From assembly GCA_963731635.1 (NCBI GenBank), contig CAVSWB010000002.1:418465-482464 (forward strand): DNA of 64,000 bases, given 5' to 3'. The stretch is from an uncultured Chloroflexia bacterium. Lineage in GTDB: Bacteria > Chloroflexota > Limnocylindria > Limnocylindrales > CSP1-4. Numbering within the stretch: the stretch's first letter is position 1; every line of letters starts with the position of its first letter. The position numbers and the translations under genes were made by a program. The notes beneath the pieces are model-generated. The model was not told the DNA's origin, did no database searches, and saw only the letters and a list, made by a program, of their open reading frames with translations. This document shows positions 10,990-35,315 of this stretch, one piece after another.

Positions 10990-11990
10990 GCGACGAGACG
11001 GCACCCCCGGTTCTGCGCACCGTCGCCCTGACGAAGGCTTTCGGCGGACTCGTTGCCGTACGAAGCGTCGACTTCGAAGTCCGGCCGGGCTCGATAACCA
11101 GCCTCATCGGGCCCAACGGCGCGGGCAAGACCACGCTCTTCAACATAGTCGCCGGGCTCTATGAGCCGACGTCCGGGCAGGTCGAGTTCCTGGGCCAGCG
11201 GGTCATCGCTTCGCCTGAACGCGGCTGGCTGGAGCCGATCCTGTGGATCTTGCCGGCCTTCCTGGCCTGGGGCCTGACCTACCTCGCCGCGACTGCGGGC
11301 GCGGGCACGAACGCCCTCCAGATCCTGATCCTGATCGGCCTGGCTCTGCTCATCACGACCTTGATCACGGCCGTCATCCGACCGGCCTGGTACACCCGAA
11401 TGCTCGTACGGCTGGGGATCTTCAAGAGCGCCCGTCCCAACGACATGGTCATCGCGGGCATCGGCAGGACGTTCCAGAACATCCGGCTCTTCGCCAACAT
11501 GTCCGCCATGGAGAACGTCCTCGTCGGCATGCACGGCAAACTCCAGGCCAGCCCGCTCGACGCAGTGCTCCGAACCCGCAAGCAGGTTCGGGAGGAAGCT
11601 GCGTCCGCCGAGGAGGCGCGGCGCCTCCTGCGGTACGTGGGCCTGACTGGCCGTGACGACGAGCTCGCTCGGAACCTTCCGTACGGCGACCAGCGCCGGC
11701 TAGAGATCGCTCGGGCGCTGGCGACAAAGCCCAAGCTGCTGCTGCTCGATGAGCCCACGGCAGGCATGAACCCGTCCGAGACCGCTTCGATGATGGCGCT
11801 CTTCGGCCGGATCAGAACCGAGCTCGGCCTGCCCATCCTGCTGATCGAACACGACATGCGGGTGGTCATGGGAGTCAGTGACCGGGTTACGGTCCTCGAC
11901 CACGGCGAGAAGATCGCCGAGGGCACACCGGCCGAGGTCAGGGCCAACAGCCGGGTCATCGAAGCCTATCTCGGGAAGGGTGCGGTCTGA
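10986..11990 (+). CDS. livG: Branched-chain amino-acid ABC transporter ATP-binding protein LivG, with an unusual ~75-aa hydrophobic insertion
   Basis: Walker A GPNGAGKTT, Q-loop region RTFQNIRLF, signature and Walker B LLLLDEPTAGMNPSE, and LivG-type C-terminus VIEAYLG. The ATG at 10986 follows the livM stop. The upstream ORF-track extension from 10440 is wrong-frame overlap and is rejected. Confidence 0.85.
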   Translation: MSDETAPPVLRTVALTKAFGGLVAVRSVDFEVRPGSITSLIGPNGAGKTTLFNIVAGLYEPTSGQVEFLGQRVIASPERGWLEPILWILPAFLAWGLTYLAATAGAGTNALQILILIGLALLITTLITAVIRPAWYTRMLVRLGIFKSARPNDMVIAGIGRTFQNIRLFANMSAMENVLVGMHGKLQASPLDAVLRTRKQVREEAASAEEARRLLRYVGLTGRDDELARNLPYGDQRRLEIARALATKPKLLLLDEPTAGMNPSETASMMALFGRIRTELGLPILLIEHDMRVVMGVSDRVTVLDHGEKIAEGTPAEVRANSRVIEAYLGKGAV

Positions 11991-11993
11991 CAC

Positions 11994-12759
11994 ATGGCTC
12001 AAGCGAGTAGCAAGCCCCGCCCATCCCGCCCCGCCCGACCCGGGAGCCGTTCTCCTGTCGCTCCACGACGTCCATGCCGTCGTACGGCCGGATCGAGGCA
12101 CTGCAGGGAATTTCCTCGAGGTCCGCCGCGGCGAGATCGTGGCCATGCTCGGCGGCAACGGCGCCGGCAAGTCGACTACCCTCAAGACGATCAGCGGCTT
12201 GATGCACCCCCGCTCCGGTTCGATCGAGTTCGACGGCCAGGACGTCATCGACGGTACCCGGCGCATCGCCTGGTGCGGCTCGGTATTGGTCACGCGCCGG
12301 AGGGAAGGCGCATCTTCGGCCGCATGACGGTCCTCGAGAACCTCCAGATGGGCGCCTACTCGCGAAGCGACAAGTCCGAGATGACCGCGGACTACGACCG
12401 CGTCTTCGGCCTCTTTCCACGCCTGCTCGAACGGAAGGGCCAGGCTGCCGGAACCCTGTCCGGCGGCGAGCAGCAGATGCTGGCGATCGGGCGGGCTCTG
12501 ATGGCACGACCCAAGCTGCTCCTGCTCGATGAACCTTCGATGGGGCTGGCCCCCGATCTCGTTGAGCAGATCTTCGAGATCATCACGCGACATCAACTCG
12601 CAGGGCACGACGATCCTGCTCGTCGAGCAGAACGCGCTGATGGCCCTCCACGTCGCGAGTCGCGGATACATCCTCCAGACCGGCAAGATCGTCCTCGCCG
12701 ACAGTTCCGAGGCGTTGGCAGCGAACGAAGACGTCAAGAAGGCGTATCTGGGCGCGTAG
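11994..12759 (+). pseudogene. livF: Branched-chain amino-acid ABC transporter ATP-binding protein LivF with at least 3 frameshifts (possible sequencing indels)
   Basis: LivF segments are spread over frames. The ATG at 11994 is in frame 0. [10 protein letters not shown]...[42 protein letters not shown] is in frame 1. [25 protein letters not shown]...[42 protein letters not shown] is in frame 0. [55 protein letters not shown] is in frame 1. Two compensating indels near 12085-12115 replace the expected [11 protein letters not shown] with [11 protein letters not shown]. Confidence 0.7.
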
Positions 12760-12807: not shown

Positions 12808-13908
12808 CTAGCGAACCACGCGTCCCGAAGCGCCGCGTATGACCGCTTCCACCTCGTCTCGAGTGGCCATGCTCGCGTCGCCCGGCGTCGTCATCGCGAG
12901 CGCCCCGTGGGCGGCGCCCCACTCGACCGCTTCCGTCGGCGATAGTCCGGAGAGGAACGCATAAACGAGCCCCGAGGCAAACAAATCGCCGCCTCCGACG
13001 CGGTCCAGAACCTCGAGGCCGGGCCGCATCTTCGCCTGGTAGATCGACCCGCCCGCCCACAGGATCGCTCCCCAGTCGTTCCGAGACGCCGTATGGGCGG
13101 TTCGGAGGGTCGTCGCAACGACCCGCAGATTGGGATAGGCGGCAACGACTCGCTCGACCATCCGCGCGTAGCTTTCCGGGTCGAGCTCTGACAGGGACTC
13201 GCCGACACCCTCGACATCGAAGCCGAGAGCGGCGGTGAAGTCCTCTTCGTTGCCGAGCAGCACGTCGACCTGCGCCACCAGCTCGCGGTTGACTTCCTGC
13301 GCCCGAACCCTGCCTCCGATCGCCTGCCAGAGCGAGGGTCGGTAGTTGAGGTCATAGGAGACAACGCAGCCATGTCGCCTGGCCGCCCGCATTCCCTCCA
13401 GGGCGACCGCCGGTGTCGTGTCGGACAGCGCCGCGAAGATGCCGCCGGTATGGAACCAGCGGGCCTTCTCGGTTCCGAAGATCGTCGGCCAGGCCACGTC
13501 GCCCGCCCTGATTTGCGAAACGGCGGTGTGGCCGCGGTCCGAGCACCCCAGCGCGGACCGAATGCCGAAGCCGCGCTCCGTGAAGTTGAGTCCGTTGCGC
13601 GCCGTGCGGCCGACCCCGTCGAAGGGCCGCCATATGAGATGCGAGCGGTCGACGCCGCCGGCCAGGATGAGGTCCTCGACAAGTCGGCCGATCGGGTTGT
13701 CAACGAGGGCGGTGACGACGGCGGTCCGCATCCCGAATGTACGACTGAGGCCGCGGGCAACGTTGTATTCGCCGCCGCCTTCCCAGGTCCGGAACGTCCG
13801 AGCGCGACTGATGCGGTCCTCTCCGGGGTCGAGCCGCAGCATCACCTCGCCGAGCGCAACGCAGTCCCAGCGCGCGCCGTCGGCGGGCGCGATGTTCAGG
13901 ATGGCCAC
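12808..13908 (-). CDS. PfkB-family sugar-acid kinase (2-dehydro-3-deoxygluconokinase KdgK-like)
   Basis: Ribokinase-like fold with the C-terminal anion hole [18 protein letters not shown] and [13 protein letters not shown]. It is a paralog of the kinase at 15754..16833. Confidence 0.75.
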
Positions 13909-14594
13909 GCCGCGCCTCCTTGCCCTGCTCTGATCCGCCGGACGATCCCGACCGCTGCGGCCGCACGGGCCGCTATCTCGTCGAACCGCCCCGCCGCGAC
14001 ATCAGCGCGGGGCGCAACCCAGCTTCCACCGCAGGCGAGGACGGATTCGATCGCCAGATAGCCGGGCAGACTCGCGGCCGTGATGCCGCCGGTCGGGTTC
14101 CAGGCCATCGTGGAGTACGGAGCGGCGAGCGCCCTGAGGTAGGGCAGGCCGCCGATCGGTTCTATGGGAAAGAGCTTCACCGCACGGATCCCGAGCGAGA
14201 TGGCGGCCTCGACCTCGCTCGGGGTGCATACGCCGGGCATCATGGGAACTCCGAGCCGGCCCGCATATTCGACCACGGCACGGTTGAGGCCCGGTGCCAC
14301 GAGCAGTCTGGCGCCGGCGTCGAACGCGACGTCGGCCTGCCGGGTCGAAGTCACCGTGCCGGCGATCAAGAACACGCCGGGCGCGTCGCGTGCGACCCGG
14401 CGCAAGGCTTCAGCGGCAGCCTCGGTCCGGAACGTGACCTCGACGATCGGCAGGCCGCCGGCTTCGAGTGCCTGGGCCAGGGCAACCGCACGCCCGGCGT
14501 CCTCGACCTCGACCACCGGCACCACGCCGGCGGCGCGGAGTCGATCGGCAAAGGTCACCGCTGCACCACCGGAGCCGGGCACGATGGCGGCCAT
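13896..14594 (-). CDS. eda: KDPG/KHG aldolase (2-dehydro-3-deoxy-6-phosphogluconate aldolase family)
   Basis: VVPVVEVEDAGRAVALAQALEAGGLPIVEVTFRT...GAGTV...GVCTPSEVEAAISLGIRAVKLFP is an Eda-type TIM barrel with the Schiff-base lysine region. Start moved to the internal ATG at 14594, dropping a 28-aa Arg-rich extension. Confidence 0.75.
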   Translation of the reverse strand: MAAIVPGSGGAAVTFADRLRAAGVVPVVEVEDAGRAVALAQALEAGGLPIVEVTFRTEAAAEALRRVARDAPGVFLIAGTVTSTRQADVAFDAGARLLVAPGLNRAVVEYAGRLGVPMMPGVCTPSEVEAAISLGIRAVKLFPIEPIGGLPYLRALAAPYSTMAWNPTGGITAASLPGYLAIESVLACGGSWVAPRADVAAGRFDEIAARAAAAVGIVRRIRAGQGGAAWPS

Positions 14595-14649
14595 TGCCGA
14601 TTCCTCCAGTCTCGATGCGGAGCCGTCTCCTTTACGGAGCAGCCTCGGG

Positions 14650-15669
14650 CTAGCTCTTCTTTTCGAGGTGGCCTCCAAAGCCGAAACGCATTGCGGAGAG
14701 GACCTTGTCGCCGTAGTCGGCCTCTCCTCGAGAGGTGAAGCGCGAGTACAGCGCGGTCGTCAGAACGGGGGCCGGCGTGCTGACGTCGATCGCGGCGATG
14801 CTGGTCCAGCGGCCTTCGCCCGAGTCGGAGACCCGACCCGAGAAGTCAGCCAGATCCGGGCTTTCACGCAGGGCCTGGGCGGTGAGGTCGAGCAACCAGG
14901 ATGCGATCACGCTTCCGCGGCGCCAGACCTCGGTCACGGCCGGCAGGTCGAGGTTGTACTGGTACATCTCCGGCTCTCGCAGCGGCGACGTTTCGGCGTC
15001 GATCTCGCGCTGGTTCAAACCCACACCGGCGTGGTGCAGGATGTTGAGGCCCTCGGCGTAAGCGGCCATGACGCCGTACTCGATGCCGTTGTGGACCATT
15101 TTGACGAAGTGGCCTGCGCCGACCGGGCCGCAGTGCAGGTAGCCCTGCTCGGCCTTGTCCGGCTCGCCTTCGCGGCCGGGCGTGCGCGGGGCCGACGCAA
15201 CTCCCGGGGCCAGCGCCTTGAACAGAGGATCGAGGTGCGCGACGGCGGCGTCGGGTCCGCCGATCATCAGGCAGTAACCGCGCTCGAGGCCCCACACGCC
15301 ACCGCTGGTGCCACAGTCGACGTAGCAGATCCCGGCCGGCTCGAGTTCCTTCGAGCGGCGGATGTCGTCGCGATAGTAGGAATTGCCGCCGTCGATGACG
15401 ATGTCGTCGGCCGCCAGCAAAGGAATGAGTTGATCGAGCGTTGCGTCGACGGAGGCCGCCGGAACCATGAGCCACAGGATGCGCGGCTTTTCGAGCTTGG
15501 CGACGAGGTCTGCCAGCGAGCTGGCTCCGCCCGAAAGCGCGCCGTCGGCCACGAGTCCGTCGACGGTCGCCTTCGTCCGAGCGTATCCGAACACGGTATG
15601 GCCGTTTTGCAGCCAACGCCGCGAAATGTTGGCGCCCATTCGGCCGAGTCCGACGAGTCCGACTTGCAT
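14650..15669 (-). CDS. Short-form 6-phosphogluconate dehydrogenase-like NAD(P)-dependent dehydrogenase (Gnd/GntZ/YqeC-like)
   Basis: Rossmann motif MQVGLVGLGRMGANI. Gnd hallmarks GNSYYRDDIRRSKEL, YCLMIGG and HNGIEYGVMAAYAEG. Start at the ATG that gives MQVGLVG. Confidence 0.7.
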   Translation of the reverse strand: MQVGLVGLGRMGANISRRWLQNGHTVFGYARTKATVDGLVADGALSGGASSLADLVAKLEKPRILWLMVPAASVDATLDQLIPLLAADDIVIDGGNSYYRDDIRRSKELEPAGICYVDCGTSGGVWGLERGYCLMIGGPDAAVAHLDPLFKALAPGVASAPRTPGREGEPDKAEQGYLHCGPVGAGHFVKMVHNGIEYGVMAAYAEGLNILHHAGVGLNQREIDAETSPLREPEMYQYNLDLPAVTEVWRRGSVIASWLLDLTAQALRESPDLADFSGRVSDSGEGRWTSIAAIDVSTPAPVLTTALYSRFTSRGEADYGDKVLSAMRFGFGGHLEKKS

Positions 15670-15753
15670 GAAACGATCCTCCTGATCTGATCTGGCTAGA
15701 GTCCGGTGCCGATCCGGCAAGTTCTGTGTTCGATTACCGGAGAGCCGCCATTG

Positions 15754-16833
15754 TCAACGCTGGATTCGGGCGGAGCCGCCCCGAGCGAAAGCCTGAACCT
15801 GTTCGAGCGTGACCATGGTCGTGTCGCCCGGCGTGGTTGTGAGCAGGGCACCGTGCGCCCAGCCAAGTCTGACGGCATCCTCGGCCGTGGCCCCGCTGAG
15901 CAGACCGTATATGAAACCCGAGGCGAAACCGTCTCCGCCGCCGACACGATCCAGAATATCCAGCTCGCAGGTTGGCGCCCGCACGGACCGACCGTCGATC
16001 CAGGCTACGGCGCTCCAGGTGTGGTGGTGGGTTGAATGGACTTCCCGGAGCGTCGTCGCCACGGCCTTCACCGAAGGGAACTTAGCTCTCACATCGTCGA
16101 TCATGCCGAGGAAGACATCGGCGTCGAGCGAGGAGGTCGACTTCACTTCGGGGCCGCGGATGCCGAGGCTCTTCTGGAGGTCCTCCTCGTTTCCAAGCAG
16201 GACGTCGACGTTCGATACGATCTGGCCGATGATCGATTGCGCCCTGTCCGCGCCGCCCCAGATGCCCCAGAGCTTCTCCCGATAGTTGAGATCGAAGCTC
16301 GTGATGGCCCCGGCCTTCTTGGCGGCTTTCATCGCTTCGATGATGAGAGGGCCTGTGGTTTCCGAGAGCGACGCAAAGATCCCGCCCGAGTGGAACCAGC
16401 GAAGTCCATCGGAGAACAGGGCGTCCCAGTCGAAATCTCCGGGCGCGAGTCGCGCGGCGGCCTCGTTTGAGCGGTTGTAGAAGACCACCGGGGCTCTGAC
16501 GCCGTAACCACGGTCGCTGAAGACGGTCGCCATGTTCGGTCCGGTTACGCCGTTGTGGGCGAAGCGTTTGTAGATGCCTCGAACGCCGACGGCTCGGACG
16601 CGTTCGGCGATGAGGTCCCCGATCGGATAGTCGACCATGGCCGACGCGATCGCCGTGTTCATACGGAAGCAGTCAGCCAGGTTGGCGGCCACGTTGAACT
16701 CGCCGCCGCTGACGTAAATGTTGCACTCGGTCGCCTTGCGGAATGGAACGATCCCGGGGTCGAGCCGGTGAACGAGCCCGCCCAGGGATACAAGGTCCAG
16801 AGCGCCTTCCCGGGGGATCATCAGTTGCGCCAT
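15754..16833 (-). CDS. PfkB-family sugar-acid kinase (KdgK/IolC-like), paralog 2
   Basis: Ribokinase-like fold with DRVGGGDGFASGFIYGLLSG and AHGALLTTTPGD. Roughly 45% identical by eye to the kinase at 12808..13908. Confidence 0.75.
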   Translation of the reverse strand: MAQLMIPREGALDLVSLGGLVHRLDPGIVPFRKATECNIYVSGGEFNVAANLADCFRMNTAIASAMVDYPIGDLIAERVRAVGVRGIYKRFAHNGVTGPNMATVFSDRGYGVRAPVVFYNRSNEAAARLAPGDFDWDALFSDGLRWFHSGGIFASLSETTGPLIIEAMKAAKKAGAITSFDLNYREKLWGIWGGADRAQSIIGQIVSNVDVLLGNEEDLQKSLGIRGPEVKSTSSLDADVFLGMIDDVRAKFPSVKAVATTLREVHSTHHHTWSAVAWIDGRSVRAPTCELDILDRVGGGDGFASGFIYGLLSGATAEDAVRLGWAHGALLTTTPGDTTMVTLEQVQAFARGGSARIQR

Positions 16834-16887
16834 GGCTTCTCCAGTCCTAGAACTCAGCAGTTGTTGGCTGCGGCCTGCATGCCTACG

Positions 16888-18171
16888 CTAGCCGACGGCC
16901 GGGACGGACGCGTCGTCCGGGTCCGCCCACTCTTCGTTGGGAACGCGCGCATACCAGCCGGGCCGGCCCGGATCGCGATCGTACGGATAGCCGCCCAGCT
17001 GCTGGAAGAGGGCCGCATAGCGGGCCACTTTCTCATGGTCGAGACGGACGCCAAGCCCAGGTCCGTCGGGAACCGCGATCGAGCCATCGTGATAGGGGAG
17101 CGGGCCGCCCTCGATGATGTCGTCCGCGAGCTGATGGTAGTGGGCGTCCGCGGCGAATTGCATCGAGGGCAAGGCCGCACCGAAGTGGAGCATGGTCGCG
17201 AGCTGTATACCGAGCTCGCCTGAAGAGTGCACGCCGATTCCCAGCTGGAATGTCTCGCACACCGCGGCTGCCTTGAGAACGGGGCGGATGCCGCCCCAGA
17301 AGGTTGTGTCGAGGAGAACCACGTCGACCGCGGGGTCACGGACGTTTGCGGCGAGCTGCTCGAGGTTGGTGACAACGGTATTCGTCGCGATCGGCAGGCC
17401 GACGGCCTGGCGGACCTGGCGCAGGCCGTTCATGCCCCAGGTCGGGTCTTCGTAATAGTCGTTGCGGAGTCCCTTGATGGCATGGCCGATGCGAATTGCG
17501 TCGCGGACGCTGTAAGACGCATTCGGGTCGATTCGCAGGGAGTCGTTCGGAAACGCTTCGGCCAGAGCCAGCAGGCAGCGCAGTTCGTAGTCCGGCGGGA
17601 AAACGCCCGCCTTCAGCTTGTGGGTCGTGAAGCCGCAGCTCGCCTTGAGGGCACGAGCGTGCTCGACCAGCTGATCGACCGTCCGGACCTCCCCGGCGCC
17701 GCTCGCCGAGTTGGGATATCTGAAGAACAGATACGCGGCGAAGGGAACGGCGCTGCGCATCTTGCCGCCCAGCAGGTCGTAGACCGGAACCTCCAGCATC
17801 TTGCCCACGGCGTCGAGGCAGGCGAACTCGAGTGCCGCGTGGATCTGCGTGCGGTTGTCGTATAACGCCGCGGTCGGATTGAGGATCTTGAACCAGAGCG
17901 CGGTCGCGTCGAAGACATCGTGGCCGAGCAGCTTCGGCCTCAGCGATTCAACCGTCAGCTGGGCGCTCTGGCCTCCACCGCCCATCTCGCCGAGTCCGAT
18001 GACGCCGCTCTCCGTTTCTATCTCGATGATGGTCCTGACGAAGCGGCCCCAGTGGGCTCCGGCGGCATGGCGAAGCGGAGCCTCGAGGGGGACGCTGACC
18101 GTGGTCGCTCGCACGTCGGCGATCCTCGATCCACGCGGCGGCCTTCCGTTCCTGGCTCCAGATGCATTCAT
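16888..18171 (-). CDS. gudD: Enolase-superfamily dehydratase, glucarate dehydratase (GudD) subgroup
   Basis: Segments [10 protein letters not shown]...[11 protein letters not shown]...AIKGL...YEDP...[10 protein letters not shown]...DTTFWGG...[28 protein letters not shown]...[12 protein letters not shown]...[12 protein letters not shown] align block-by-block with E. coli GudD from memory (FKLKGGVL...ITLDPNGAWSL...IKIGKYLKG...AEDP...GLPTATNMIA...DPHFWT...[27 protein letters not shown]...PGLGVEIDMDQV). Size 427 aa. Confidence 0.65.
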
Positions 18172-19526
18172 TTCGGCGCTCCTTCATCCGGCGTGGGCGT
18201 CTCGGGTGCCGGCGGCTGCGTGGCGCGTGCGAGCGAAGCCGCACGGTCGAGGACCACCCGTACGGGGACGCCAAGCCGTTCCGCCGCTGCCGCGGCGTCT
18301 GAGTATTCCGTCTGCGTTGTCACGGGCTCACCATCCAGAAGGCCGCGCTTGACCCTGATTTCGGAACCGTCGACATGCACGAGGACTTCGTCGCGAGGCA
18401 GCGCCAGGCGCGCGACCGGCCGCCAGCGGACTCCGAGCGTGGTCGAGGCGGTAAAGAGTGCGCGGGCCGCGGCGTCGAGCGCATGTTCCGAGACAAGGGC
18501 GGTCACAACGTGCCCGGGCCGGCCCTTACGCATGACGACCGGCGTCAGCCAGGCATCCGCGGCGCCGGCCTGGACCAGCGCGTCGAGGACGGCGGGCCAG
18601 AGACGTGGATCGAGATCGTCCACGGTCGCCTCGAGCTCCATCAGGTCGTCCCGACGCCACGGAACCAGGCCCGGGGTAAGGGCGCTGCCGAGAACGACCC
18701 GCATCACGTTGGCCCTTCCGGGCGGATCCTTCGAACCGGCGCCGACACCGACACCGTCGATACGCATCTGCGGCACGGGGCCCCAGTCGTCCGCGAGGAC
18801 TGCCAGCAGGGCCGCCCCGGTTGGCGTGCAGAGTTCCCCCTCGCCGCCTGCCGTGACGGCAGCACCGCGCCCGGTGAGGATCGCCAGCACGGCCGGCACG
18901 GGAACCGGCAATCGCCCATGCGACGACTCGATCGTTCCGCTGCCGACTGCTACGGGGCTGACGACGACCCGGGCACGCGGCTCGAGCAGGCCGAGAACGT
19001 CGAGCGCGGCGGCGCAACCGATGACATCGGCAATCGAGTCCAGCGCACCGACCTCGTGGAGGTGAACCTGATCCAGGCTCTCCCCATGGACGCCGGCCTC
19101 GGCATTGCCCATCAGCAGGAAGACGTCACGGGCAAAGGCGGCTATTGCAGGCGCAAGCGTCGCCGCCCCGGCGACGATCGCCAGCACGTCGCCGACGCTG
19201 CGCGGCGCCGCTGTCTCGGAAACCTGAACGTCGGCCTTGGTGGCACGCAGCCCGTGGCGCCTGGTCGGGCCGGCGCGGACTTCGATTGGTTCGACATCCA
19301 GCGCTCCGATTGCAGCCGTCACGGCTGCGACCGGCGCACCGGCATCCAGCAGCGCGCCCAGCAGCATGTCGCCGGAGGCGCCGGCGGAGGCATCGATCCA
19401 GACGCAGCGGCTGCCTTGTGCCACAGAAATCTCCTCGCGAGGGCGCAACTCGTCCGGCGCAACAGCCGGCCGAAGTCTGACCTCAGTGGGGCCGGGTAGC
19501 AGGACGCCGCGCGATTTGGCAATCAT
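18168..19526 (-). CDS. larC: LarC, nickel-pincer nucleotide (NPN) biosynthesis nickel insertase (DUF111 family)
   Basis: N-terminal [21 protein letters not shown] matches the LarC/DUF111 signature (LDCFSGISGDMxLGAL). C-terminal LarC-like domain present. Start is uncertain: ATG at 19526, alternative GTG near 19427. Stop overlaps the gudD start. Confidence 0.7.
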
Positions 19527-19540
19527 GTAACAACTTGACA
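19495..19540. promoter_or_regulatory. Putative operator palindromes in the larC/lacI divergent intergenic region
   Basis: CAACTtgacAGTTG (5-4-5) immediately followed by GTTGCtGCAAC (5-1-5) within aatcatgtaacaacttgacagttgctgcaaccg. Position fits a LacI-family operator and includes a TTGACA -35-like box. Confidence 0.25.
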
Positions 19541-19570
19541 GTTGCTGCAACCGCTTTCATTCTATGGCCG

Positions 19571-20644
19571 ATGCACCAGCGAAACGGCCCTTCCGCAGCC
19601 TCGATCCGGGATGTCGCCCTCAGTGCGAACGTCTCGGCTGCGACCGTTTCGAGAGCCTTTGCCGCGCCCGACCTCGTCCGCCAGGAAACCCTGGCGCGCG
19701 TCCTTGCCGTCGCCGAGGAGTTGCACTACCGGCCGAGCCGGGCGGCGCGAAGCCTCACGACGGGCAAGACCGGCAACATCGGCGTGATCGTGCCGGATCT
19801 GGGGAACCCGTTCTTCCCGGCGATTCTGAAGGGCAGCCAGGCCCGAGCCCGGGAGGCCGACTACGCCGTCTTCCTGGCCGACTCCGATGAAAGCCCCCGG
19901 CTCGAGATCGAGCTGGTGCGTGCGATGTTGAGGCAGGTCGACGGCATCGTGATCTGCTCGTCCCGGCTGGCCGAGGCGCAGCTTCAGCAGCTCCGGAGGG
20001 ACACGACCCTCGTTCTGCTCAACCGCCGGGTGCGCGGCGCGTCTTCCGTCCTGCTCGACAGCGCCGGGGGCATGCGTCAGGCGGTGGAGCACCTCGTCGC
20101 GTTGGGCCACCGGAAGATTGCCTTCGTGAGCGGTCCCGCCGGGTCGTGGTCCAATCGCGAGCGGCGCCGGGGCCTACGGGCGGGCTCGCGGGGAAGGATG
20201 CTCGAGGTCGTCGACTTCGGTCCGTTCGCGCCCGGTTTCGAGGCCGGGCAGCACGCGGCCGACCTGGCAGTAGCGGCCGACGTGACGGCCGTGATCGCCT
20301 ACAACGACCTGATGGCCCTGGGCATTCTCAGTCGACTCGCCGACCGGGGCATCCCCGTGCCGGAGTACATAAGCGTGGTCGGCTTCGACAACATCTCGAT
20401 GGCCGGAATGTCCACTCCCGCGCTTACGACCGTGGCGCTGCCGCTCGAGCAGGCCGGCCGTGTCGCTATCGAGCTGCTGCTTGAGCAGCTTGCCCATCCA
20501 GGGTCGGGCACGCACGAACAGAGCTTGCCGGCCCAGTTGATCGTTCGACCTTCCACAGGACCCCCACGAAGCGGGTCGCGGTCGGACGTGCGGGTTATGC
20601 GTGGAGGGCCCGCCCAGGACACACCGGTCACCGCGGAGAGGTAG
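19571..20644 (+). CDS. LacI-family transcriptional regulator
   Basis: N-terminal HTH ASIRDVALSANVSAATVSRAF followed by a periplasmic-binding-protein-like sugar-binding domain (GNIGVIVPDLGNPFF...AYNDLMALG...VVGFDN). Confidence 0.85.
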   Translation: MHQRNGPSAASIRDVALSANVSAATVSRAFAAPDLVRQETLARVLAVAEELHYRPSRAARSLTTGKTGNIGVIVPDLGNPFFPAILKGSQARAREADYAVFLADSDESPRLEIELVRAMLRQVDGIVICSSRLAEAQLQQLRRDTTLVLLNRRVRGASSVLLDSAGGMRQAVEHLVALGHRKIAFVSGPAGSWSNRERRRGLRAGSRGRMLEVVDFGPFAPGFEAGQHAADLAVAADVTAVIAYNDLMALGILSRLADRGIPVPEYISVVGFDNISMAGMSTPALTTVALPLEQAGRVAIELLLEQLAHPGSGTHEQSLPAQLIVRPSTGPPRSGSRSDVRVMRGGPAQDTPVTAER

Positions 20645-20675: not shown

Positions 20676-21940
20676 ATGAGACTCAGTTCTTGGGACAAGC
20701 GGCTGGGGATCGTCCTGGCCGTGGGAATGGTCGCGTCGGCTTGCGGTACCTCAAGCCCGACGACCACACCGACACCGACAATCGGCCCGTCGGCTACGAC
20801 CGGCGCGAGCAACTCCGCTGCCGCGAGCGGTTCGGCGGCCGCGGCCTCCATGAAGGTTCCGTCCGCGCCCGTCACCCTCAACATCCTCGACGTCGCCGGC
20901 AACCTCCAGCTCACCAAGGGGATGATCGAGAACTTCAAGGCGGCTCATCCCGAGATCGTCAGCAACGTCACCTACTCGACCGCAACCGCGCCGGAGCTTG
21001 CGGGCAAGCTGCAGGCCCAGCAGCAGGGCGGCAACGTTCAGATCAATCTCGTCCTGACCGGCACCGACGGCCTGTCGGCGGGCATCAAGAACAATCTTCT
21101 GACCAAGGTCATTCCTGACCATCAGGACATGTTCCCCGGTCTGATGGACAACTACCTCGCACCGGCGGCCGACATGCAAGGCCTGGCACAGGGATACGGC
21201 ATTGAAGTCGTTTACTACCCGTCCGGCCCGCTAATCGAGTACAACCCGGCCAAGGTCACCACCCCTCCGACCACGCCCGCAGAGCTGCTCGCCTGGGCGA
21301 AGGCTCATCCCGGCAGGTTCGAGTACGCCCGTCCGGCCAACTCCGGCCCGGGCCGCACGTTCCTGATGGCGCTTGCCGTATCTGCTCGGCGACAAGGACT
21401 CCGACCGACCCGGTCAATGGCTGGACCAACACCTGGGCATACCTCAAGGACCTGGGCCAGTACATCAACGTCTATCAGACCGGCACCACCGCGACCATGA
21501 AGGATCTTGCCGCCGGCACCGTCGACATGATCGCCACCACGACCGGTTGGTACATCAACCCGATCATCCTCGGGACCGTCCCGAAGACGACCGCGGTCGG
21601 CAACTTCGCGAACATGACCTGGGTCACTGACGCGCAGTACGTCGTTATCCCGAACGGTGTCTCGGCCGACGTTCTCACCGCGGACCTGGATCTCATCGCC
21701 TGGATGCTCAAGCCCGATCAGCAGGCCATCGCCTACGACAAGGGCTACTTCTATCCGGGCCCGGCAGTCAAGGGCGTCACCCTCGACATGGCTCCGGCCG
21801 ACAGCCAGGCCGCGCTCAAGGGCGTGGTTCCGGCCCAGTTCGACCAGTGGATTGCGCAGTTCCCCAAGGTCACGTCGCTGCCCGCCGACCAGCAGGTCAC
21901 CGCGTTCGACCTGTGGGACCAGAATGTTGGCAAGAAGTAG
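20676..21940 (+). pseudogene. ABC transporter substrate-binding lipoprotein (PotD/AfuA-like, family 1 SBP) with two closely spaced frameshifts (~21375 and ~21420)
   Basis: Lipobox LAVGMVASACG. The protein reads ...GPGRTFLMAL in frame 0, PYLLGDKDSDRP in frame 1, then VNGWTNTWAYLKDLGQYINVYQTGTTATMKDLAAGTVDMIATTTGWY... in frame 2 through to 21940. Both shifts sit at short homopolymer runs. Confidence 0.65.
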
Positions 21941-22017
21941 GCGGATCGTCGCCACCGATCAGGAATTGACCTGTTAGCAAAGGAAACCAGCCGTGCGCGA
22001 CCAACAGCTTCTCTGAA

Positions 22018-23086
22018 TTGCGTCTCGACCGCATCGGCCGCAACTTCGGCGAGCAGGCCGCACTGAGCGATCTCAGTCTGACGATCCGAGGAGGCGAGTT
22101 CATCGCCCTCCTCGGGCCGTCGGGTTGCGGCAAATCGACGGCTCTCAACTGTCTGGCCGGGCTGCTGCCGCTCTCCAGCGGCAGCATCTGGCTCGACGAT
22201 CGAGCGCATCGACGGGCTGGCCCCCGAGCAGCGTGGCTTCGGGATGGTCTTCCAGAACTACGCGCTCTTCCCGCACATGACCGTTCGCGACAACGTCGCT
22301 TTCGGGCTCAAGATGCGCAAGACGCCTCGCCCGGAATTGCGCCGCCGGGTGGACGAGGCAATGGCTCTGGTCCGGCTCGAGGATCAGGCGACCAAGCTGC
22401 CGGCCCAGCTGTCGGGCGGGCAGCAGCAGCGCGTCGCCATCGCCCGCGCGGTTGTCTATGAGCCGCCGCTCGTGCTCATGGACGAGCCGCTATCCAACCT
22501 TGACGCCCAGCTGCGGCTGGCCATGCGGACCGAGATCCGGCGTCTCCATCAAACGCTCGGCCTGACGACGATCTACGTCACGCACGATCAGGAAGAAGCC
22601 CTTTCGATGGCCGACCGCCTGGTCCTGCTCCGCGAGGGCATTGTCCAGCAGGTCGGCACGCCCGACGACGTCTACGCCCATCCAGCCAATCGTTATGTGG
22701 CGGGCTTCATGGGCTATCGGAACATGCTCGAATTCGACCTCGAGAGCGCCTCCGGAGGCTCGGCGGTGCTCGCTTCCAAGGACGTGCGCCTGACCGGCAT
22801 GACGTTCGGGCCGATCGAGTCGAAGCGAGCCGTGGCCGCGATCCGGCCCGAGGACGTGGTCGTGGACGGGCCCGAGCCGAACCGGTTCCAGGTGACCGCC
22901 GAGGTTGTCGAGTATCACGGTCGCGAACTGCTGATCCTGGCTCGGCTGCCCGCCGGCGAACCACTCTACCTGCGGACCGAGAAGCGGTTCGCCGCCGGCG
23001 ACGCCATCGCAGTTTCGGTGCCGCCGGAACGCGTTCTCGTCTACCCGGCCGATGCACCCGCGGCGCCGACGGAGGCAGTCGTATGA
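22018..23086 (+). pseudogene. ABC transporter ATP-binding protein (PotA/FbpC-like, with C-terminal TOBE/MOP-like domain), frameshift near 22210
   Basis: Walker A GPSGCGKST, then a frame switch. The expected IWLDDRRIDGLAPEQRGFGMVFQNYALFPH is restored by deleting one base in gatcgaGcgcatc. Downstream: LSGGQQQRVAIARA, VLMDEPLSNLDAQLR, YVTHDQEEA. Confidence 0.7.
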
Positions 23087-24000
23087 CGGCCGCGTCTGGC
23101 CTGGCGCCGCGCCCGGCGGCCGCGGGACGCTCGCTCAAGCACCGCCTTGCCGATCGCGGCATCGACCGCGTGCTGCTCTTGCTCCTGCCCGGCGTCCTGT
23201 TTCTGGTGCTGCTCTTCGTGTACCCGTTCCTTTACGGGCTGCAGCTGTCATTCGCCCCCCAAGGCGGTGGCGGACCGCTCGCGAACTATCAGACTTTCTT
23301 CTCGGACCCGTACCTGCGCGACACCATCTGGACAACCCTCAGTCTCGGCGTACCGGCAGCGCTTCTCAACGTGCTGGTCTCCGTGCCGATCGCGTACCGG
23401 ATGCGCGGCGCGTTTCGCGGCAAGCGGACCCTCACCACGCTGCTGGTGGTCCCGATCGCCCTCGGCACGGTCCTCACGGCCGAAGGCCTCATCGAGTTCC
23501 TCGGCCCCTCGGGCTGGCTCAACAAATTCCTGAAGGACTTCGGTCTCGTCGACCAGCCGGTCCTGCTGGTCCACAACTACTGGGGCGTCTTCTTCTCGCT
23601 GGTGATCACGGGCTTCCCGTTCGCGTTCCTGCTCGTGCTCTCGTACCTCTCGGGTATCGATCCGAACCTCGAGCGGGCGGCCTCGGTGATGGGAGCCGGT
23701 TGGGTGCAGCGGTTCCGCCGTATCACCTTCCCGCTGCTCGTCCCGGGTCTGGCCATCACCTTCTGCCTGTCGTTCGTGCTCGCCTTCTCGGTCTTCCCCT
23801 CGGCCAACCTTGTCGGTGATCCGTCCGGCACTACGCGCGTGATATCGATCGCGGCGTACCACGCTGCCTTCGAGCAGTTCGATTATTCGATGGGTTCGAC
23901 GATCTCCATGATCATGGGCGCAGTCATGCTCGGGATTATTGCCATCGTCCTGGGCTGGCGAAGCACGCTCTTCCGAGGAGCCACCGGAGGTAAGGGCTGA
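23083..24000 (+). CDS. ABC transporter permease (PotB-like)
   Basis: Six-TM permease with the ABC inner-membrane EAA-like region (ERAASVMGAGWVQRFRRITFPLLVPG). Coupled to the flanking genes. Confidence 0.8.
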   Translation: MTAASGLAPRPAAAGRSLKHRLADRGIDRVLLLLLPGVLFLVLLFVYPFLYGLQLSFAPQGGGGPLANYQTFFSDPYLRDTIWTTLSLGVPAALLNVLVSVPIAYRMRGAFRGKRTLTTLLVVPIALGTVLTAEGLIEFLGPSGWLNKFLKDFGLVDQPVLLVHNYWGVFFSLVITGFPFAFLLVLSYLSGIDPNLERAASVMGAGWVQRFRRITFPLLVPGLAITFCLSFVLAFSVFPSANLVGDPSGTTRVISIAAYHAAFEQFDYSMGSTISMIMGAVMLGIIAIVLGWRSTLFRGATGGKG

Positions 24001-24875
24001 TGGCCGCCGCGATGAATGCTCCCACCACTGCCGCGCCGCGCGCTTCGAGGCGGAGCTTCCGGCCGTCGAACATCGGGGGCTGGGTGGTCTGGGGCCTGGT
24101 CGCTTTCTTCTTCATCAACCTCGCGGGTCTGATCTCCACAGTCGTCCTCTCGTCGTTCGCGACCACGTGGTTCGGGTCCTGGATCCCCGACGGCTTCACG
24201 ACCCACTGGTACGGCGACGCCTGGGCCGAGTTCGATCTGTCCGACGTGCTCACGGTCACGGCCCAGGTGGCAATCACAGTCGTGGTCGTGTCCGCCCTCA
24301 TCGGCGTTCCGGCAGCCTATGCGCTGGCTCGGCGCAACTTCCCCGGCAAAGCCCTGATTACGGTCCTCTTCCTGCTGCCGATTCTCATTCCGCCGATCAC
24401 CTACGGCATCCCCCTCGCGACCGTGCTCTACAAGGTGCACCTGGCCGGCAGCCTGTCCGGCGTGATCGTGGCGAACCTGGTACCGACGGTGCCGTTCGTT
24501 GTCCTGGTCATGATTCCCTTCATCGAACAGATAGACCCGAAGATCGAGGCGGCGGCGCGGATGTGCGGCGCGGGCACTTTCACGGTCTTCACGCGCATCC
24601 TCGGGCCGCTCCTGGTGCCCGGCATTCTCGCCGCGGCGATCCTGGTACTCGTCCGGACGGTCGGCATGTTCGAGTTGACCTTCCTGACGTCGGGCCCGAC
24701 AAGCTCGACGCTCGTCGTGGTCCTGTATTCGGCGGTGTTCGGAGCCGGCATCAGGGCTCCACAAGAAGTCGACGCGATGGCGGTCGTCTATACAGCCTCG
24801 ATGATGGTGCTGCTCGTGATCGCCCTGCGCTTTGTCAATCCGACTCAGCTGGTAACGCGCGTAGGAAACCGCTGA
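24000..24875 (+). CDS. ABC transporter permease (PotC-like)
   Basis: Polytopic permease with EAA-like loop EAAARMCGAGTFTVFTRILGPLLVPG. ATGA overlap with the upstream permease. Confidence 0.8.
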   Translation: MAAAMNAPTTAAPRASRRSFRPSNIGGWVVWGLVAFFFINLAGLISTVVLSSFATTWFGSWIPDGFTTHWYGDAWAEFDLSDVLTVTAQVAITVVVVSALIGVPAAYALARRNFPGKALITVLFLLPILIPPITYGIPLATVLYKVHLAGSLSGVIVANLVPTVPFVVLVMIPFIEQIDPKIEAAARMCGAGTFTVFTRILGPLLVPGILAAAILVLVRTVGMFELTFLTSGPTSSTLVVVLYSAVFGAGIRAPQEVDAMAVVYTASMMVLLVIALRFVNPTQLVTRVGNR

Positions 24876-24962: not shown

Positions 24963-25715
24963 ATGACCCGAACCGTCGTTGCCCCCGAGCGGCCGGGCGA
25001 CCTGATTGGACTCGCTATTGCCGACCTCGAACCCGGTCAGTCGTTCGAGTCGCCGGGCGATCTCGAAACCGTGGTCGTCGTACTCGGCGGCGTTGTGGAC
25101 GTCGAAGCGAACGGCGAATCGCTCGGGTCGGCCGGGGGACGAGCGTCCGTCTTCGAGGGCCCCGGTCACGCCGTCTACGCTCCTCCAGGCACGCGGCTCC
25201 GACTGAAGGCCACGACCTCAGCTCAGCTCGCCATTGCCACGGCACCCGCCGGCGGATCGTCGCCGGCCGGCGCGCGCGTAATCGGGCCCGGGGACCAGCG
25301 CCTTGCGGACGTTGGCAAAGGGAATTGGGCTCGCACCGTTCGAACCATCCTCGGCCCCGAGCACGCCGCCGGCAGGCTCCTGCTGGGTGAGACGATCAAC
25401 CCGCCGGGCAACTGGTCTTCGTACCCGCCACACCGGCACGATCGCGAGACGCCCGGCGAGGAGGTCAGGCTCGAGGAGGTCTACCTGTTCAAGGTCGATC
25501 CGCCAGAGGGTTTCGGGGTTCAGATCCGTTATGACGAGGCCGCCACCGAAGCCTTCACCGTTCGGGACGGCGACGCGGCAGTCATCCGCACCGGCTACCA
25601 CCCGGTCGTGGCGGCGCCGGGTTACTCCCTCTACTACCTGTGGGTCATGGCCGGCGAAGGCCGAGAAATGATCCCTCACTTCGACCCGGCCCACGCCTGG
25701 GTTCAGAAGTCATGA
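24963..25715 (+). CDS. KduI/IolB-family cupin sugar-acid isomerase (5-deoxy-glucuronate isomerase IolB-like)
   Basis: GNWSSYPPHRHDRETPGEEVRLEEVYLFKVDPPEGFGVQIRYDE...VIRTGYHPVVAAPGYSLYYLWVMAGEGREMIPHFDPAHAWV matches B. subtilis IolB nearly motif-for-motif from memory (GNWSSYPPHKHDQDN...EETYYHELDPGQGFVFQRVY...VPAGYHPVGVPDGYTSYYLNVMAG...HNDPAHEWI). Confidence 0.7.
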   Translation: MTRTVVAPERPGDLIGLAIADLEPGQSFESPGDLETVVVVLGGVVDVEANGESLGSAGGRASVFEGPGHAVYAPPGTRLRLKATTSAQLAIATAPAGGSSPAGARVIGPGDQRLADVGKGNWARTVRTILGPEHAAGRLLLGETINPPGNWSSYPPHRHDRETPGEEVRLEEVYLFKVDPPEGFGVQIRYDEAATEAFTVRDGDAAVIRTGYHPVVAAPGYSLYYLWVMAGEGREMIPHFDPAHAWVQKS

Positions 25716-27247: not shown

Positions 27248-28047
27248 GCAACCTCCAAGCTGCCGGCTCGGCCTCGGGTATCGGCCTCTTCGACCTCACC
27301 GGCCGGGTGGCCGCGGTTGTCGGCGGCGCCGGCGTCCTCGGCGGCACGGTTTGCCACGGCTTCGGCGATGCCGGGGCCGCGATCGCGGTGCTCGATCGCT
27401 CGCAGGAGCGCGCCGACGAACTGGTGGCGGCGCTCAAGGCCAAGGGCGTCAGGGCGGCCGCCTTCGTGTTGGATGCCTCGGATCAGGCGTCTGTCGAGGC
27501 GGCGCACAAGGCGGTCGAGGCGGCGCTCGGCCCGGTCGACATCCTCGTCAATGCCGTCGGCATCAACAGCGGGACGCCCTTCTTCGAACTCGGGCTGGAG
27601 GAGTGGAACCGCGTTCTCCAGGTGAACCTGACCTCGTGCCTGCTGGCTTGCCAGATCTTCGGCAAGGCCATGGTCGATCGCGGGCAGGGCGGGTCGATCA
27701 TCAACTTCTCGTCGGCGTCCTCGGAAGTGCCGCTCTCACGCGTGCTGACGTATTCGGTGTCCAAGGCCGGGATCAACATCCTGACGCGCTACCTGGCGCG
27801 CGAGCTGGCGCCACACAAGATCCGGGTCAACGCCATCGTGCCGGGGTTCTTCCCGGCCGAGCAAAATCGCAAGCTGCTCGATGACGCCCGGATCGAGTCG
27901 ATCATCCGCCACACCCCGGCCGGCCGGCTCGGCGAGGCCGAGGAGCTGGTCGGAACCATGATCTGGCTCGCCTCGGACCGCGCCTCCGGCTTCGTGACGG
28001 GGTCCCTCGTCCGCGTGGACGGCGGCTTCAGCGCGATGACAATCTGA
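27244..28047 (+). CDS. Short-chain dehydrogenase/reductase (UxuB/KduD-like sugar-acid oxidoreductase)
   Basis: Gly-rich NAD(P) motif VVGGAGVLGGTV, NAVG, catalytic S...YSVSKAG triad, PG motif. Coupled to the UxaE-like gene. Confidence 0.8.
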   Translation: MSNLQAAGSASGIGLFDLTGRVAAVVGGAGVLGGTVCHGFGDAGAAIAVLDRSQERADELVAALKAKGVRAAAFVLDASDQASVEAAHKAVEAALGPVDILVNAVGINSGTPFFELGLEEWNRVLQVNLTSCLLACQIFGKAMVDRGQGGSIINFSSASSEVPLSRVLTYSVSKAGINILTRYLARELAPHKIRVNAIVPGFFPAEQNRKLLDDARIESIIRHTPAGRLGEAEELVGTMIWLASDRASGFVTGSLVRVDGGFSAMTI

Positions 28048-29782: not shown

Positions 29783-29887
29783 CGGCCTGACGATACATCC
29801 TCTTCACCGTCCGCGCGCCGGGCGCTCTCGCCGGGCCGGGGGCCGCTCGGTGTAGAGTTGAGCCCTCGTACGAGGCGAGCCACGATC

Positions 29888-31984: not shown

Positions 31985-32111
31985 GCGATCTCCCATCGTT
32001 CGGCCACCGCCCGCGTCGACATGATCCCATGGCCGGGCGCGGCTCGAGGCACTGCGGGGTGGCAGGTTCTCGCCAGGGTCGCCCCAGGTAAACTGAGCGC
32101 GCCGGCGCCGC

Positions 32112-32197
32112 GGAGAGGTGGCAGAGCGGTCTATTGCGGCGGTCTTGAAAACCGCTGGACGAGAGTCCCGTGAGTTCGAATCTCACCCTCTCCGCCA
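32112..32197 (+). tRNA. tRNA-Ser (anticodon TGA)
   Basis: Acceptor GGAGAGG/CCTCTCC plus discriminator G and CCA. Anticodon stem-loop GCGGT-CTTGAAA-ACCGC with TGA centred. Long variable arm TGGACGAGAGTCCCG, T-arm GAGTTCGAATCTCAC. Class II tRNA length. Confidence 0.85.
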
Positions 32198-32210
32198 AGA
32201 TTGCCCTCGT

Positions 32211-33524: not shown

Positions 33525-33542
33525 CAGTGCGGCTGGCGGGCA

Positions 33543-33770: not shown

Positions 33771-33889
33771 GACGGCAGCACGCAGCCGGTGGCTCACCAG
33801 GTCAGGTTCGTTCCCGAATGGCCTGCTCGATGACTGGCGCTCGACTCGGTGTAGTCGCTCGGGGGAAGGCCCCCGCCTCTGCAGCTCGT

Positions 33890-35305: not shown

Positions 35306-35315
35306 CACCCTTGCC

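Follow-up and report, generated by a model that had tools for sequence, protein, structure and literature searches.

The 64-kb stretch of Limnocylindria DNA analysed here (the window; 64,000 nucleotides (nt), ~67% GC, to whose positions all coordinates refer) carries at 12.8–31.3 kb a single catabolic island of ~19 kb, in which the genes for a nickel-pincer enzyme and its cofactor stand among those of a putative sugar-acid pathway. The lower half of the island is a run of six minus-strand genes that reads, from the larC end, larC-enolase-pfkB2-gnd-eda-pfkB1. The upper half encodes a LacI-family regulator, a CUT1-type ABC importer, an IolB/KduI-family cupin, a UxaE-family epimerase, a short-chain dehydrogenase/reductase (SDR1) and a LarA homologue of group 22 (LarA22), with larB and larE inserted between SDR1 and the LarA homologue. 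The reading that we favour, and hold to be reasonably probable, is that the island catabolises a hexuronate (glucuronate and/or galacturonate, possibly as a small oligomer) and that mannonate leaves the pathway by two exits. The closest relatives of the window proteins are 80–87% identical and come from metagenome-assembled genomes (MAGs) of Limnocylindria and other Chloroflexota; homologous loci are referred to below by number (L001 and so on).

In the proposed scheme, the ABC importer would take up the substrate and the IolB-like cupin would convert the aldo-uronate into the keto-uronate in place of UxaC. UxaE would then interconvert tagaturonate and fructuronate, and SDR1 would reduce fructuronate to D-mannonate. 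At exit (a), the enolase-superfamily dehydratase would convert mannonate to 2-keto-3-deoxygluconate (KDG), which would be phosphorylated by pfkB-1 and cleaved by Eda to pyruvate and glyceraldehyde-3-phosphate. At exit (b), LarA22, with its nickel-pincer nucleotide (NPN) cofactor, and pfkB-2 would together turn mannonate into 6-phosphogluconate, and Gnd would convert this to ribulose-5-phosphate, giving back the reducing equivalent spent at the reductase. The cofactor requirement of exit (b) would explain why larC heads the operon and why larB and larE lie beside the LarA gene. A LacI-type repressor bound to one operator between the divergent units would bring uptake, the genes of the upper pathway, the two exits and nickel insertion under joint control. 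The analysis itself shows domains and families, gene order and junctions, and the conservation of the modules between genomes and of the operator; we infer every substrate, which of kinase and epimerase acts first in exit (b), that the genes are co-transcribed, and how they are regulated.

The assignment of the enolase-superfamily protein is central to this scheme. A preliminary description of the six-gene run had taken it for a glucarate dehydratase of the GudD type, an assignment that the comparisons do not uphold. The protein scores 179.6 bits against the D-glucarate dehydratase equivalog TIGR03247, far below the cutoff of 828.7, and 85 versus 550 for the ManD model; it is 33–35% identical to E. 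coli GudD (33%) and GudX. Its MR_MLE domains are recognised (PF13378, 180 bits; PF02746, 43 bits) with metal ligands and general bases conserved, and alignment with GudD and GudX identifies K185/K187, D215, N217, E241, N264, D288, H315, D342 and H344 as conserved residues. The GlucD catalytic set, which we take to be the KxK motif, the metal ligands Asp235, Glu260 and Asn289, the Asp313-His339 dyad and Asn341, is retained in its KxK motif, metal ligands and Asp-His dyad, so that the enolase is a plausible acid-sugar dehydratase. The equivalent of Asn341 is Ser317, and three GlucD insertions are absent. In a PDB search the nearest solved relatives were 4it1, 3vc5/3vc6/4dhg, 3vdg/3vfc, 3va8, 4dye and 2oqh, structural-genomics entries with putative or generic names, and the true GlucD structures scored ~100 bits below them. 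None of the PDB entries of the closest solved relatives carries an experimentally based function name, and a literature search for 3VC5, 4IT1, 3VDG, 3VA8, 4DYE and MSMEG_6132 found no functional study. The family is large, with thousands of metagenomic homologues, and many of the closest relatives bear the automatic label 'glucarate dehydratase' (JGI).

The gene neighbourhoods of these homologues point to an aldonate as the substrate. GudP, GarL and KdgD are absent from the window and from six enolase-homologue contexts. Enolases of ~70% identity lie in GntR-SBP-permeases-GH38-DUF4432-SDR-enolase-SGL lactonase-GH38 clusters of two independent lineages (SBP, substrate-binding protein; DUF4432 is mutarotase-like); loci with the SDR/lactonase/GH38 cluster are L003 (4232–13999), L089 (3151–12735) and L087 (8001–11482). 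Other homologues occur as SDR-enolase or enolase-lactonase arrangements beside sugar ABC importers, and in one context an AGE-family 2-epimerase adjoins the enolase. Such neighbourhoods look like the signature of a route from sugar through lactone and aldonate to 2-keto-3-deoxy-aldonate, and they predict an oxidative route from D-mannose through mannonate to KDG in Gaiellaceae and other soil bacteria. The α-mannosidases (GH38) of the homologue clusters make D-mannonate the likeliest aldonate, and the window enolase is probably an aldonate dehydratase that converts D-mannonate to KDG. With an aldonate as substrate, a KDG kinase and Eda would be the canonical next steps, in place of the non-canonical route previously drawn downstream of GudD, and Gnd with pfkB-2 would form a parallel second branch.

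The two PfkB kinases, which are 43% identical, fall to these two branches. pfkB-1 adjoins eda in the window and in L001, shares 48% identity with a KdgK-like kinase found in the Bacteroidota cluster L091, and is predicted to be a KdgK-like KDG kinase. pfkB-2 adjoins gnd in the window and also in L001, L013 and L026; its predicted role is that of a 6-kinase acting on a hexonate (gluconate or mannonate) and feeding Gnd. In L001, whose enolase is 86% identical to that of the window, the order is larC-enolase-eda-pfkB1-pfkB2-gnd; set against the window order, this indicates that the eda/pfkB1 and pfkB2/gnd pairs move as units. L001 has in addition a GH130 gene (β-mannoside phosphorylase family, 15468–16496) after gnd that is absent from the window; it is a hint that glycans containing mannose may be a further source for the island.

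The pairing of pfkB-2 with gnd extends well beyond close relatives. Genes of the UxaE, fructuronate reductase, LarA-family epimerase, kinase and Gnd classes all lie within 12.8–31.3 kb of the window, and equivalents of this set are found in clusters L026 (Limnocylindria; UxaC-SDR1-LarA22-x-pfkB2-gnd), L091 (Bacteroidota; UxaC-SDR-2-hydroxyacid dehydrogenase-LarA homologue-PfkB(KdgK-like)-UxaE-PfkB2-Gnd-SDR-Eda) and L092 (Acidobacteriota; UxaE-SDR-LarAH18-Gnd-PfkB2). The adjacency of pfkB-2, gnd, a LarA homologue, UxaE and an SDR thus occurs in three phyla, Chloroflexota, Bacteroidota and Acidobacteriota, and L091 resembles the window in holding two PfkB kinases together with Gnd and Eda. The pfkB-2 orthologues of the Bacteroidota and Acidobacteriota MAGs (L091 8001–9083; L092 7561–8643) are 77% identical to that of the window, whereas the neighbouring UxaE, Gnd, Eda and SDR proteins are 28–54% and the LarA homologues <25% identical. 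pfkB-2 is therefore the most conserved component, which may reflect either unusually strong constraint or a recent transfer of the gene. Since the pfkB-1-type kinases are only 42–48% identical to these orthologues, the two kinases form separate orthologous groups. Both L091 and L092 carry a canonical long Gnd (768 bits) in place of the short form, which implies that the branch ends at 6-phosphogluconate. These data support the earlier suggestion that the two kinases serve different acceptors: pfkB-1 pairs with eda, and pfkB-2 with gnd and a LarA homologue.

LarA22 is assigned to its group by NF052515, whose NCBIfam name is 'nickel pincer cofactor-dependent isomerase, group 22'. PDB sequence searches with LarA22 returned no match, whether the query was one sequence or a profile. 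Its AlphaFold model (predicted local distance difference test score 65 overall) is confident in the N-terminal domain only; in Foldseek the top 17 matches to the model were all LarA-family structures, with E-values of 3e-9 to 2e-6. The LarA22 protein of the window is 456–466 amino acids (aa) long. H132, H198, K211 and H227 are invariant between LarA22 and a group-18 LarA homologue to which it is <25% identical, and motif spacing suggests that they correspond to H108, H174, K184 and H200 of LarA. Gluconate 2-epimerases of the GntE type (LarA groups 19/20) have Glu-Val/Ser after the second catalytic His (PMC11770544). LarA22 departs from this substrate-loop signature with Thr-Asp, as against Glu-Val in the group-18 protein. 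LarA22 is predicted to be an NPN-dependent hexonate 2-epimerase.

A genome scan for relatives of LarA22 returned 80 loci, 46 of them close (at least 56% identical) and with upstream sequence. SDR1 lies upstream of LarA22 in 36 of the 46 (directly adjacent in 25, with larB-larE between them in 11), a coupling which indicates that one of the two enzymes, SDR or LarA22, acts on the product of the other. A homologue of 46% identity occurs in cultured Halalkalibacter oceani DSM 100579 (L060, 6818–19923), in the cluster enolase-PfkB-Eda-LarA22-D-2-hydroxyacid dehydrogenase-TRAP(DctPQM)-IlvD/Edd; no lar biosynthesis genes were found in this 21-kb locus. Table S1 of Desguin 2020 enters group 22 under 'unknown function' and records genes for SDR, dehydratase, TRAP, sugar kinase and UxaC in its vicinity; the L060 context matches the group-22 contexts given there. 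The L060 cluster would link group 22 to acid-sugar catabolism ending in 2-keto-3-deoxy-6-phosphogluconate (KDPG).

In the upper half, the cupin holds the place that UxaC has in L026 and L091, and no UxaC gene was found in the 64-kb window; the cupin is predicted to be a uronate aldose-ketose isomerase standing in for UxaC. SDR1, 54% identical to the SDR that adjoins UxaC in L091, is predicted to be a fructuronate reductase resembling D-mannonate oxidoreductase. A PDB search with the importer SBP gave no match and hence no clue to the transported ligand.

The placement of the lar genes was examined among relatives. That larC heads the operon, as described earlier, is seen in the window and in L001, but the arrangement is not conserved among other close relatives: in L017, whose enolase is 84% identical, the enolase is promoter-proximal and the locus lacks larC, larB and larE, whereas in L010, L012, L014 and L048 larC heads another unit, divergent from iolB-SDR1. 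Because the lar genes shift position within the island, their presence appears to reflect the cofactor need of LarA22 and not a specific link to the dehydratase. larC lies 8.7–10.4 kb from larB, larE and the LarA homologue, a distance earlier put at 9 kb; treating it as remote from its client was mistaken, as the LarA homologue, larB and larE belong to the same ~19-kb island.

Regulation may be exerted from the larC/lacI intergenic region. A predicted operator, TGCAACCGCTTTCA at 19546–19559, sits in the spacer of a promoter-like block and fits the LacI-family half-site pattern TGNAANCGNTTNCA perfectly; it is the only exact match to that pattern in the 64-kb window, and the whole block upstream of lacI is conserved in L001 and L017. 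This conserved predicted operator supports the earlier proposal that larC is tied to sugar-acid induction. In the window (19535–19575), L001 and L017 the lacI start falls ~9 nt past a −10-like hexamer, a distance that suggests a leaderless lacI transcript. The palindrome CAACTTGACAGTTG, the first operator candidate, was neither conserved nor statistically unusual and was replaced by TGCAACCGCTTTCA. No inverted repeats were found in three intergenic regions at the thresholds of the repeat search.

Several observations weigh against the hexuronate pathway as drawn. The IolB family is known for 5-deoxyglucuronate and not for glucuronate or galacturonate, and the cupin is cast as a UxaC substitute on gene position only. 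SDR1 lies just under the mannonate oxidoreductase cutoff (262 versus 281). LarA group 22 is without known substrate, and the Thr-Asp pair of LarA22 means that its substrate may differ from that of the gluconate 2-epimerases. In most LarA22 loci SDR1 is the one island gene seen within 10 kb. The full island thus belongs to some of the genomes only, in part owing to 10-kb flanks that are too short to reach lower-pathway genes. Both kinases are far under every NCBIfam kinase equivalog cutoff, and what is established is their membership of the PfkB superfamily only (145 bits for pfkB-1 and 125 for pfkB-2 against the KdgK equivalog NF041332, cutoff 440), and we know of no characterised gluconate or mannonate kinase of the PfkB family. 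The enolase contexts point to mannose oxidation, and the window has no lactonase. The island might also be decaying, as the SBP and ATPase frames of the importer are each broken by a single-base indel (extra T near 21374 and extra base near 21407 in the SBP; break near 22200 in the ATPase), with intact L001 counterparts of 421 and 363 aa. The genes split relative to intact orthologues lie at 20697–21940 (SBP), 22009–23086 (ABC ATPase), 11013–12560 (Liv-type ATPases) and 59161–61819 (P-type ATPase), and the six genes of the run are intact. Frameshifts scattered over unrelated genes, among them a P-type ATPase gene far from the island, make consensus errors of a long-read assembly more likely than pseudogenes or decay.

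Among other accounts of the same genes, one keeps the island and changes its substrate: the compound that is imported or made by oxidation would be a neutral hexose or some other aldonate, such as D-mannonate derived from mannose, L-gulonate, L-idonate or D-altronate, with LarA22 epimerising C2 to suit the dehydratase and/or the kinase. It draws on the GH38 mannosidases, mutarotase-like protein, SDR and lactonase found with enolase homologues, on the GH130 gene of L001, on LarA22 loop residues unlike those of GntE, and on an importer of the CUT1 type, typical of neutral sugars and oligosaccharides. We judge it unlikely: the island holds UxaE (402 bits) together with a uronate isomerase of the IolB/KduI family, the latter replaced by UxaC in L026 and L091, no lactonase or aldose dehydrogenase signature was found in the window, and a CUT1 ABC system of T. 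maritima serves digalacturonate (PMC3750489). A KduI/KduD route, in which the cupin and SDR1 turn 4-deoxy-L-threo-5-hexosulose uronate from lyase-degraded polysaccharides into KDG for pfkB-1 and Eda while LarA22, pfkB-2 and Gnd serve some other substrate, seems less probable again. The cupin does belong to the KduI/IolB Pfam family, SDR1 does match KduD models (166 bits), and group-18 LarA homologues have genes of the KduI type in their vicinity (Desguin 2020, Table S1), but KduD membership would take 339 bits by the equivalog cutoff, and the match to the KduI model amounts to only 16 bits. In addition, UxaE sits between the cupin and SDR1, and the enolase dehydratase would be left without a role. 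KDG, a 2-keto acid, also fits poorly with the tight coupling of SDR1 to LarA22, an enzyme that requires a 2-hydroxy acid.

Two further accounts we regard as very improbable. If the enolase were after all a glucarate/idarate dehydratase of the GudD type, the kinases, the Gnd-like enzyme and Eda would have to process 5-dehydro-4-deoxyglucarate by a new phosphorylative route. Glucarate dehydratase is indeed its best NCBIfam match and the JGI label of its homologues, and KxK, metal ligands and Asp-His dyad are of the GlucD type; set against this are the low score (180 versus 829 bits) and identity, the missing insertions, the Asn341-to-Ser change, the lack of a GudP-type transporter, KdgD or GarL in the window, and the occurrence of homologues in neutral-sugar oxidation clusters. 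Moreover, Gnd passes the 6-phosphogluconate dehydrogenase equivalog and is replaced by the canonical long form in L091 and L092, so that the branch ends at 6-phosphogluconate, a product out of reach for glucarate. The other account, no more credible, is redundancy and chance: both PfkB proteins would be KDG kinases, gnd would be a housekeeping gene placed here by accident, and larC a mere neighbour. The T. maritima KDG kinase 2afb is the closest PDB entry for both kinases (176 bits for pfkB-1), and in L093 a pfkB-2 homologue stands without gnd or a LarA gene beside it. Such an account would have to accommodate, however, the recurrence of the pfkB-2/gnd/LarA-homologue/UxaE/SDR adjacency in three phyla, the 77% identity among pfkB-2 orthologues across phyla, to which pfkB-1-type kinases are only 42–48% identical, and a larC/enolase overlap shared with L001. 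An inositol reading (IolB-IolC-IolJ) was also considered and rejected: the window has no iolD, iolE, iolG or iolJ, and both kinases score ~100 bits against an IolC cutoff of 300.

The hexuronate pathway with its two exits gives LarA group 22 a concrete predicted function, hexonate C2 epimerisation in hexuronate catabolism. It also flags pfkB-2 as the partner of Gnd and as a candidate for the orphan gluconate/mannonate 6-kinase of the L. suebicus pathway, and suggests a substrate class for an enolase subgroup with several solved structures, while correcting the automated 'glucarate dehydratase' label on many of its close relatives. More tentative, and in our view doubtful as a whole, is the stronger claim that LarA22 acts on a phosphorylated hexonate, that pfkB-2 founds a new PfkB hexonate-kinase family, that the enolase subgroup (4it1, 3vc5, 3vdg) is a third independent mannonate dehydratase family and that the cupin is a UxaC-independent uronate isomerase. 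The value of the island lies in the sharp predictions that it allows on the LarA22 substrate, a PfkB hexonate kinase, an orphan enolase subgroup and a UxaC-independent isomerase; Halalkalibacter oceani is a tractable organism in which to look for the group-22 substrate. On this reading, Chloroflexota of soil and peat (Limnocylindria) would have built the synthesis of the nickel-pincer cofactor into a pathway for sugar acids from plant polymers, which would imply a nickel requirement for that carbon source. A literature search found no paper joining nickel-pincer enzymes with mannonate and 6-phosphogluconate.

The features of the island are collected in the table below, with gene starts chosen from Shine-Dalgarno motifs and from alignment to the orthologous locus L001. 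The six minus-strand genes of the preliminary description, with their families and order, and the divergent LacI gene were all recovered. Their open reading frames (ORFs; 12808–19550) have a third-position GC content of 0.79–0.83 in each, which supports real coding. Curated cutoffs are exceeded by Eda (TIGR01182, 208 bits versus 156), Gnd (TIGR00872, 405 versus 297; NF007161, 438 versus 271) and both parts of LarC (LarC1, TIGR00299, 178 versus 90; LarC2, NF052512, 118 versus 50). The start of gnd is confirmed by an alignment that runs the full length of the L001 orthologue. larC, the promoter-proximal gene, probably starts at GTG 19424, preceded by GGAG; position 19526, where the run had earlier been ended, is an alternative ATG. 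The UxaE start probably lies near 25720–25750, as the alignment to L001 UxaE begins at 25748. The genes had been described as packed with overlapping stops and starts, and this holds for two junctions: larC and the enolase overlap by 4 nt (ATGA, with GAAGGAG upstream, an arrangement shared with L001), and the pfkB-1 GTG start overlaps the eda stop by 13 nt. With the probable starts, the remaining junctions are looser, with gaps of 54 nt (enolase/pfkB-2), 84 nt (pfkB-2/gnd) and 55 nt (gnd/eda). Consensus scans, in themselves little informative, found no convincing terminator or sigma-70 promoter inside the run, and an Rfam scan found no element in it and gave only the tRNA. Co-transcription of the six genes as one operon is plausible, being consistent with the shared strand, the junctions and the lack of internal terminator or promoter consensus.

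Table. Features of the catabolic island in the window; scores are in bits, followed where applicable by the model cutoff.
Feature	Position	Strand	Remarks
pfkB-1	12808–13908	−	PF00294; last gene of the run; GTG start after AAGGAGG
eda, KDPG/2-keto-4-hydroxyglutarate (KHG) aldolase	13896–14594 (ORF to 14678)	−	PF01081, 189 bits; probable ATG 14594 after GGAGG
gnd, short-form decarboxylating 6-phosphogluconate dehydrogenase	14650–15669 (ORF to 15720)	−	ATG 15669
pfkB-2	15754–16833	−	PF00294
Enolase-superfamily acid-sugar dehydratase (predicted), GlucD-like subgroup	16888–18171	−	MR_MLE_N and MR_MLE_C
larC, fused LarC1/LarC2 nickel insertase for NPN cofactor	18168–19424 (ORF to 19550)	−	PF01969, 386 bits
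Promoter-like block TTGACA-16 nt-CATTCT enclosing predicted LacI-family operator TGCAACCGCTTTCA	19535–19563	+	larC/lacI intergenic region
LacI-family regulator	19571–20644	+	LacI helix-turn-helix and Peripla_BP_3; ATG 19571, start from sequence and L001 alignment
CUT1-type ABC importer: SBP, MalK-like ATPase, two permeases	20697–24875	+	SBP and ATPase frames each interrupted by a single-base indel
IolB/KduI-family cupin isomerase	24963–25715	+	PF04962, 257 bits; TIGR04378, 211 versus 205
UxaE-family tagaturonate/fructuronate epimerase	25640–27247 (longest ORF)	+	PF16257, 402 bits
SDR1	27244–28047	+	NF006132 (D-mannonate oxidoreductase), 262 versus 281, just under cutoff
larB	28078–28947	−	NF033503, 232 versus 175; NPN cofactor biosynthesis
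larE	28847–29782	−	TIGR00268, 244 versus 150; NPN cofactor biosynthesis
LarA homologue group 22 (LarA22)	29858–31258; probable start 29888	+	NF052515, 502 versus 400

The regulator gene lacI is co-directional with the transporter and upper-pathway genes. To the left of the run lies a Liv-type ABC transporter, convergent with pfkB-1, and further left a class I-type lysyl-tRNA synthetase (183–1949; PF01921, 284 bits), a minority form in bacteria, adjoins a gene for a sigma factor of the extracytoplasmic function type. A second SDR (31295–31996, minus strand, 233 aa) converges on the 3′ end of LarA22; it has no close counterpart beside LarA22 elsewhere, where only 34–35% matches occur several kb off. 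The right end of the island is a tRNA-Ser gene (32112–32197). After this tRNA-Ser(TGA) the region 32112–50000 holds a tyrosine integrase, a pSAM2-type RepSA replication initiator, IS21 (IstA/IstB) and IS3-type transposases and, at 47174–49564, a TOTE-type archaeo-eukaryotic primase-helicase, with GC falling to 61% at 36–40 kb. It looks like an integrative element of the actinomycete integrative and conjugative element kind, seated at the tRNA and abutting the catabolic island.

The closest parallel to the island is the UxaR regulon of T. maritima, aldH-pelB-gnd-uxaRED-gntEK with kdgAK-uxuBA (Rodionova 2012; Rodionov 2013, PMC3750489). Its LarA homologue GntE (group 20) has been demonstrated to epimerise D-mannonate to D-gluconate and back, and the proposal is that it directs mannonate into the pentose-phosphate pathway (Desguin 2020, PMC7583248). 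Both systems combine enzymes of the UxaE, SDR reductase, LarA-family epimerase, kinase, Gnd, KDG kinase, KDPG aldolase and mannonate dehydratase classes with one sugar-responsive repressor and a CUT1 ABC importer, and the predicted logic is the same: mannonate goes either to KDG or, by way of a nickel-pincer epimerase, to 6-phosphogluconate. The protein families differ. The island has a group-22 LarA with other substrate-loop residues instead of the group-20 GntE, a PfkB branch kinase instead of the FGGY kinase GntK, an enolase-superfamily dehydratase instead of UxuA, an IolB-like cupin where UxaC would be, and a regulator of the LacI instead of the GntR family; larB, larC and larE are embedded in it.

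In Lactobacillus suebicus, the 6-phosphogluconate exit makes hexuronate catabolism redox-neutral, and the redox logic of both exits has been described; phosphorylation is the earlier of the two steps there, and genes were assigned to neither step (PMC6978723). The island would likewise run from UxaE and fructuronate reductase through mannonate and 6-phosphogluconate to Gnd as a redox-neutral alternative to the KDG exit. It differs in offering candidates for the two steps, pfkB-2 and the LarA homologue, which are adjacent in several phyla, although nothing ties them to L. suebicus itself. Group-18 LarA homologues neighbour SDR, 6-phosphogluconate dehydrogenase, ribokinase-family kinase, UxaC and KduI genes (Desguin 2020, Table S1). 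Their NCBIfam name, 'nickel-dependent putative hexonate epimerase' (NF052594), marks the function as putative. L092 pairs LarAH18 with UxaE, SDR, Gnd and the kinase 77% identical to pfkB-2, whereas the window LarA22 is distant from group 18 both in identity and in the two positions that follow its second catalytic His.

With E. coli GudD and GudX (PDB 1ec7, 4gyp) the window enolase shares the enolase fold, KxK, metal ligands, Asp-His dyad and the equivalents of Asp366 and His368, but it is without the three insertions, has Ser for Asn341, and has no glucarate transporter or aldarate enzyme nearby. Exit (a) is identical in predicted chemistry to the Ashwell pathway (UxaC-UxuB-UxuA-KdgK-Eda) from uronate to pyruvate and glyceraldehyde-3-phosphate, with three of the five steps assigned to unrelated or distant families (IolB-like cupin, SDR and enolase-superfamily dehydratase). 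The canonical UxuB is of the long-chain mannitol-dehydrogenase type and is replaced here by an SDR. Taken together, these comparisons suggest that the island is a variant of a known pathway in which four steps would be carried out by other families: LarA22 for GntE, PfkB for the FGGY kinase GntK, the enolase for UxuA and the cupin for UxaC.

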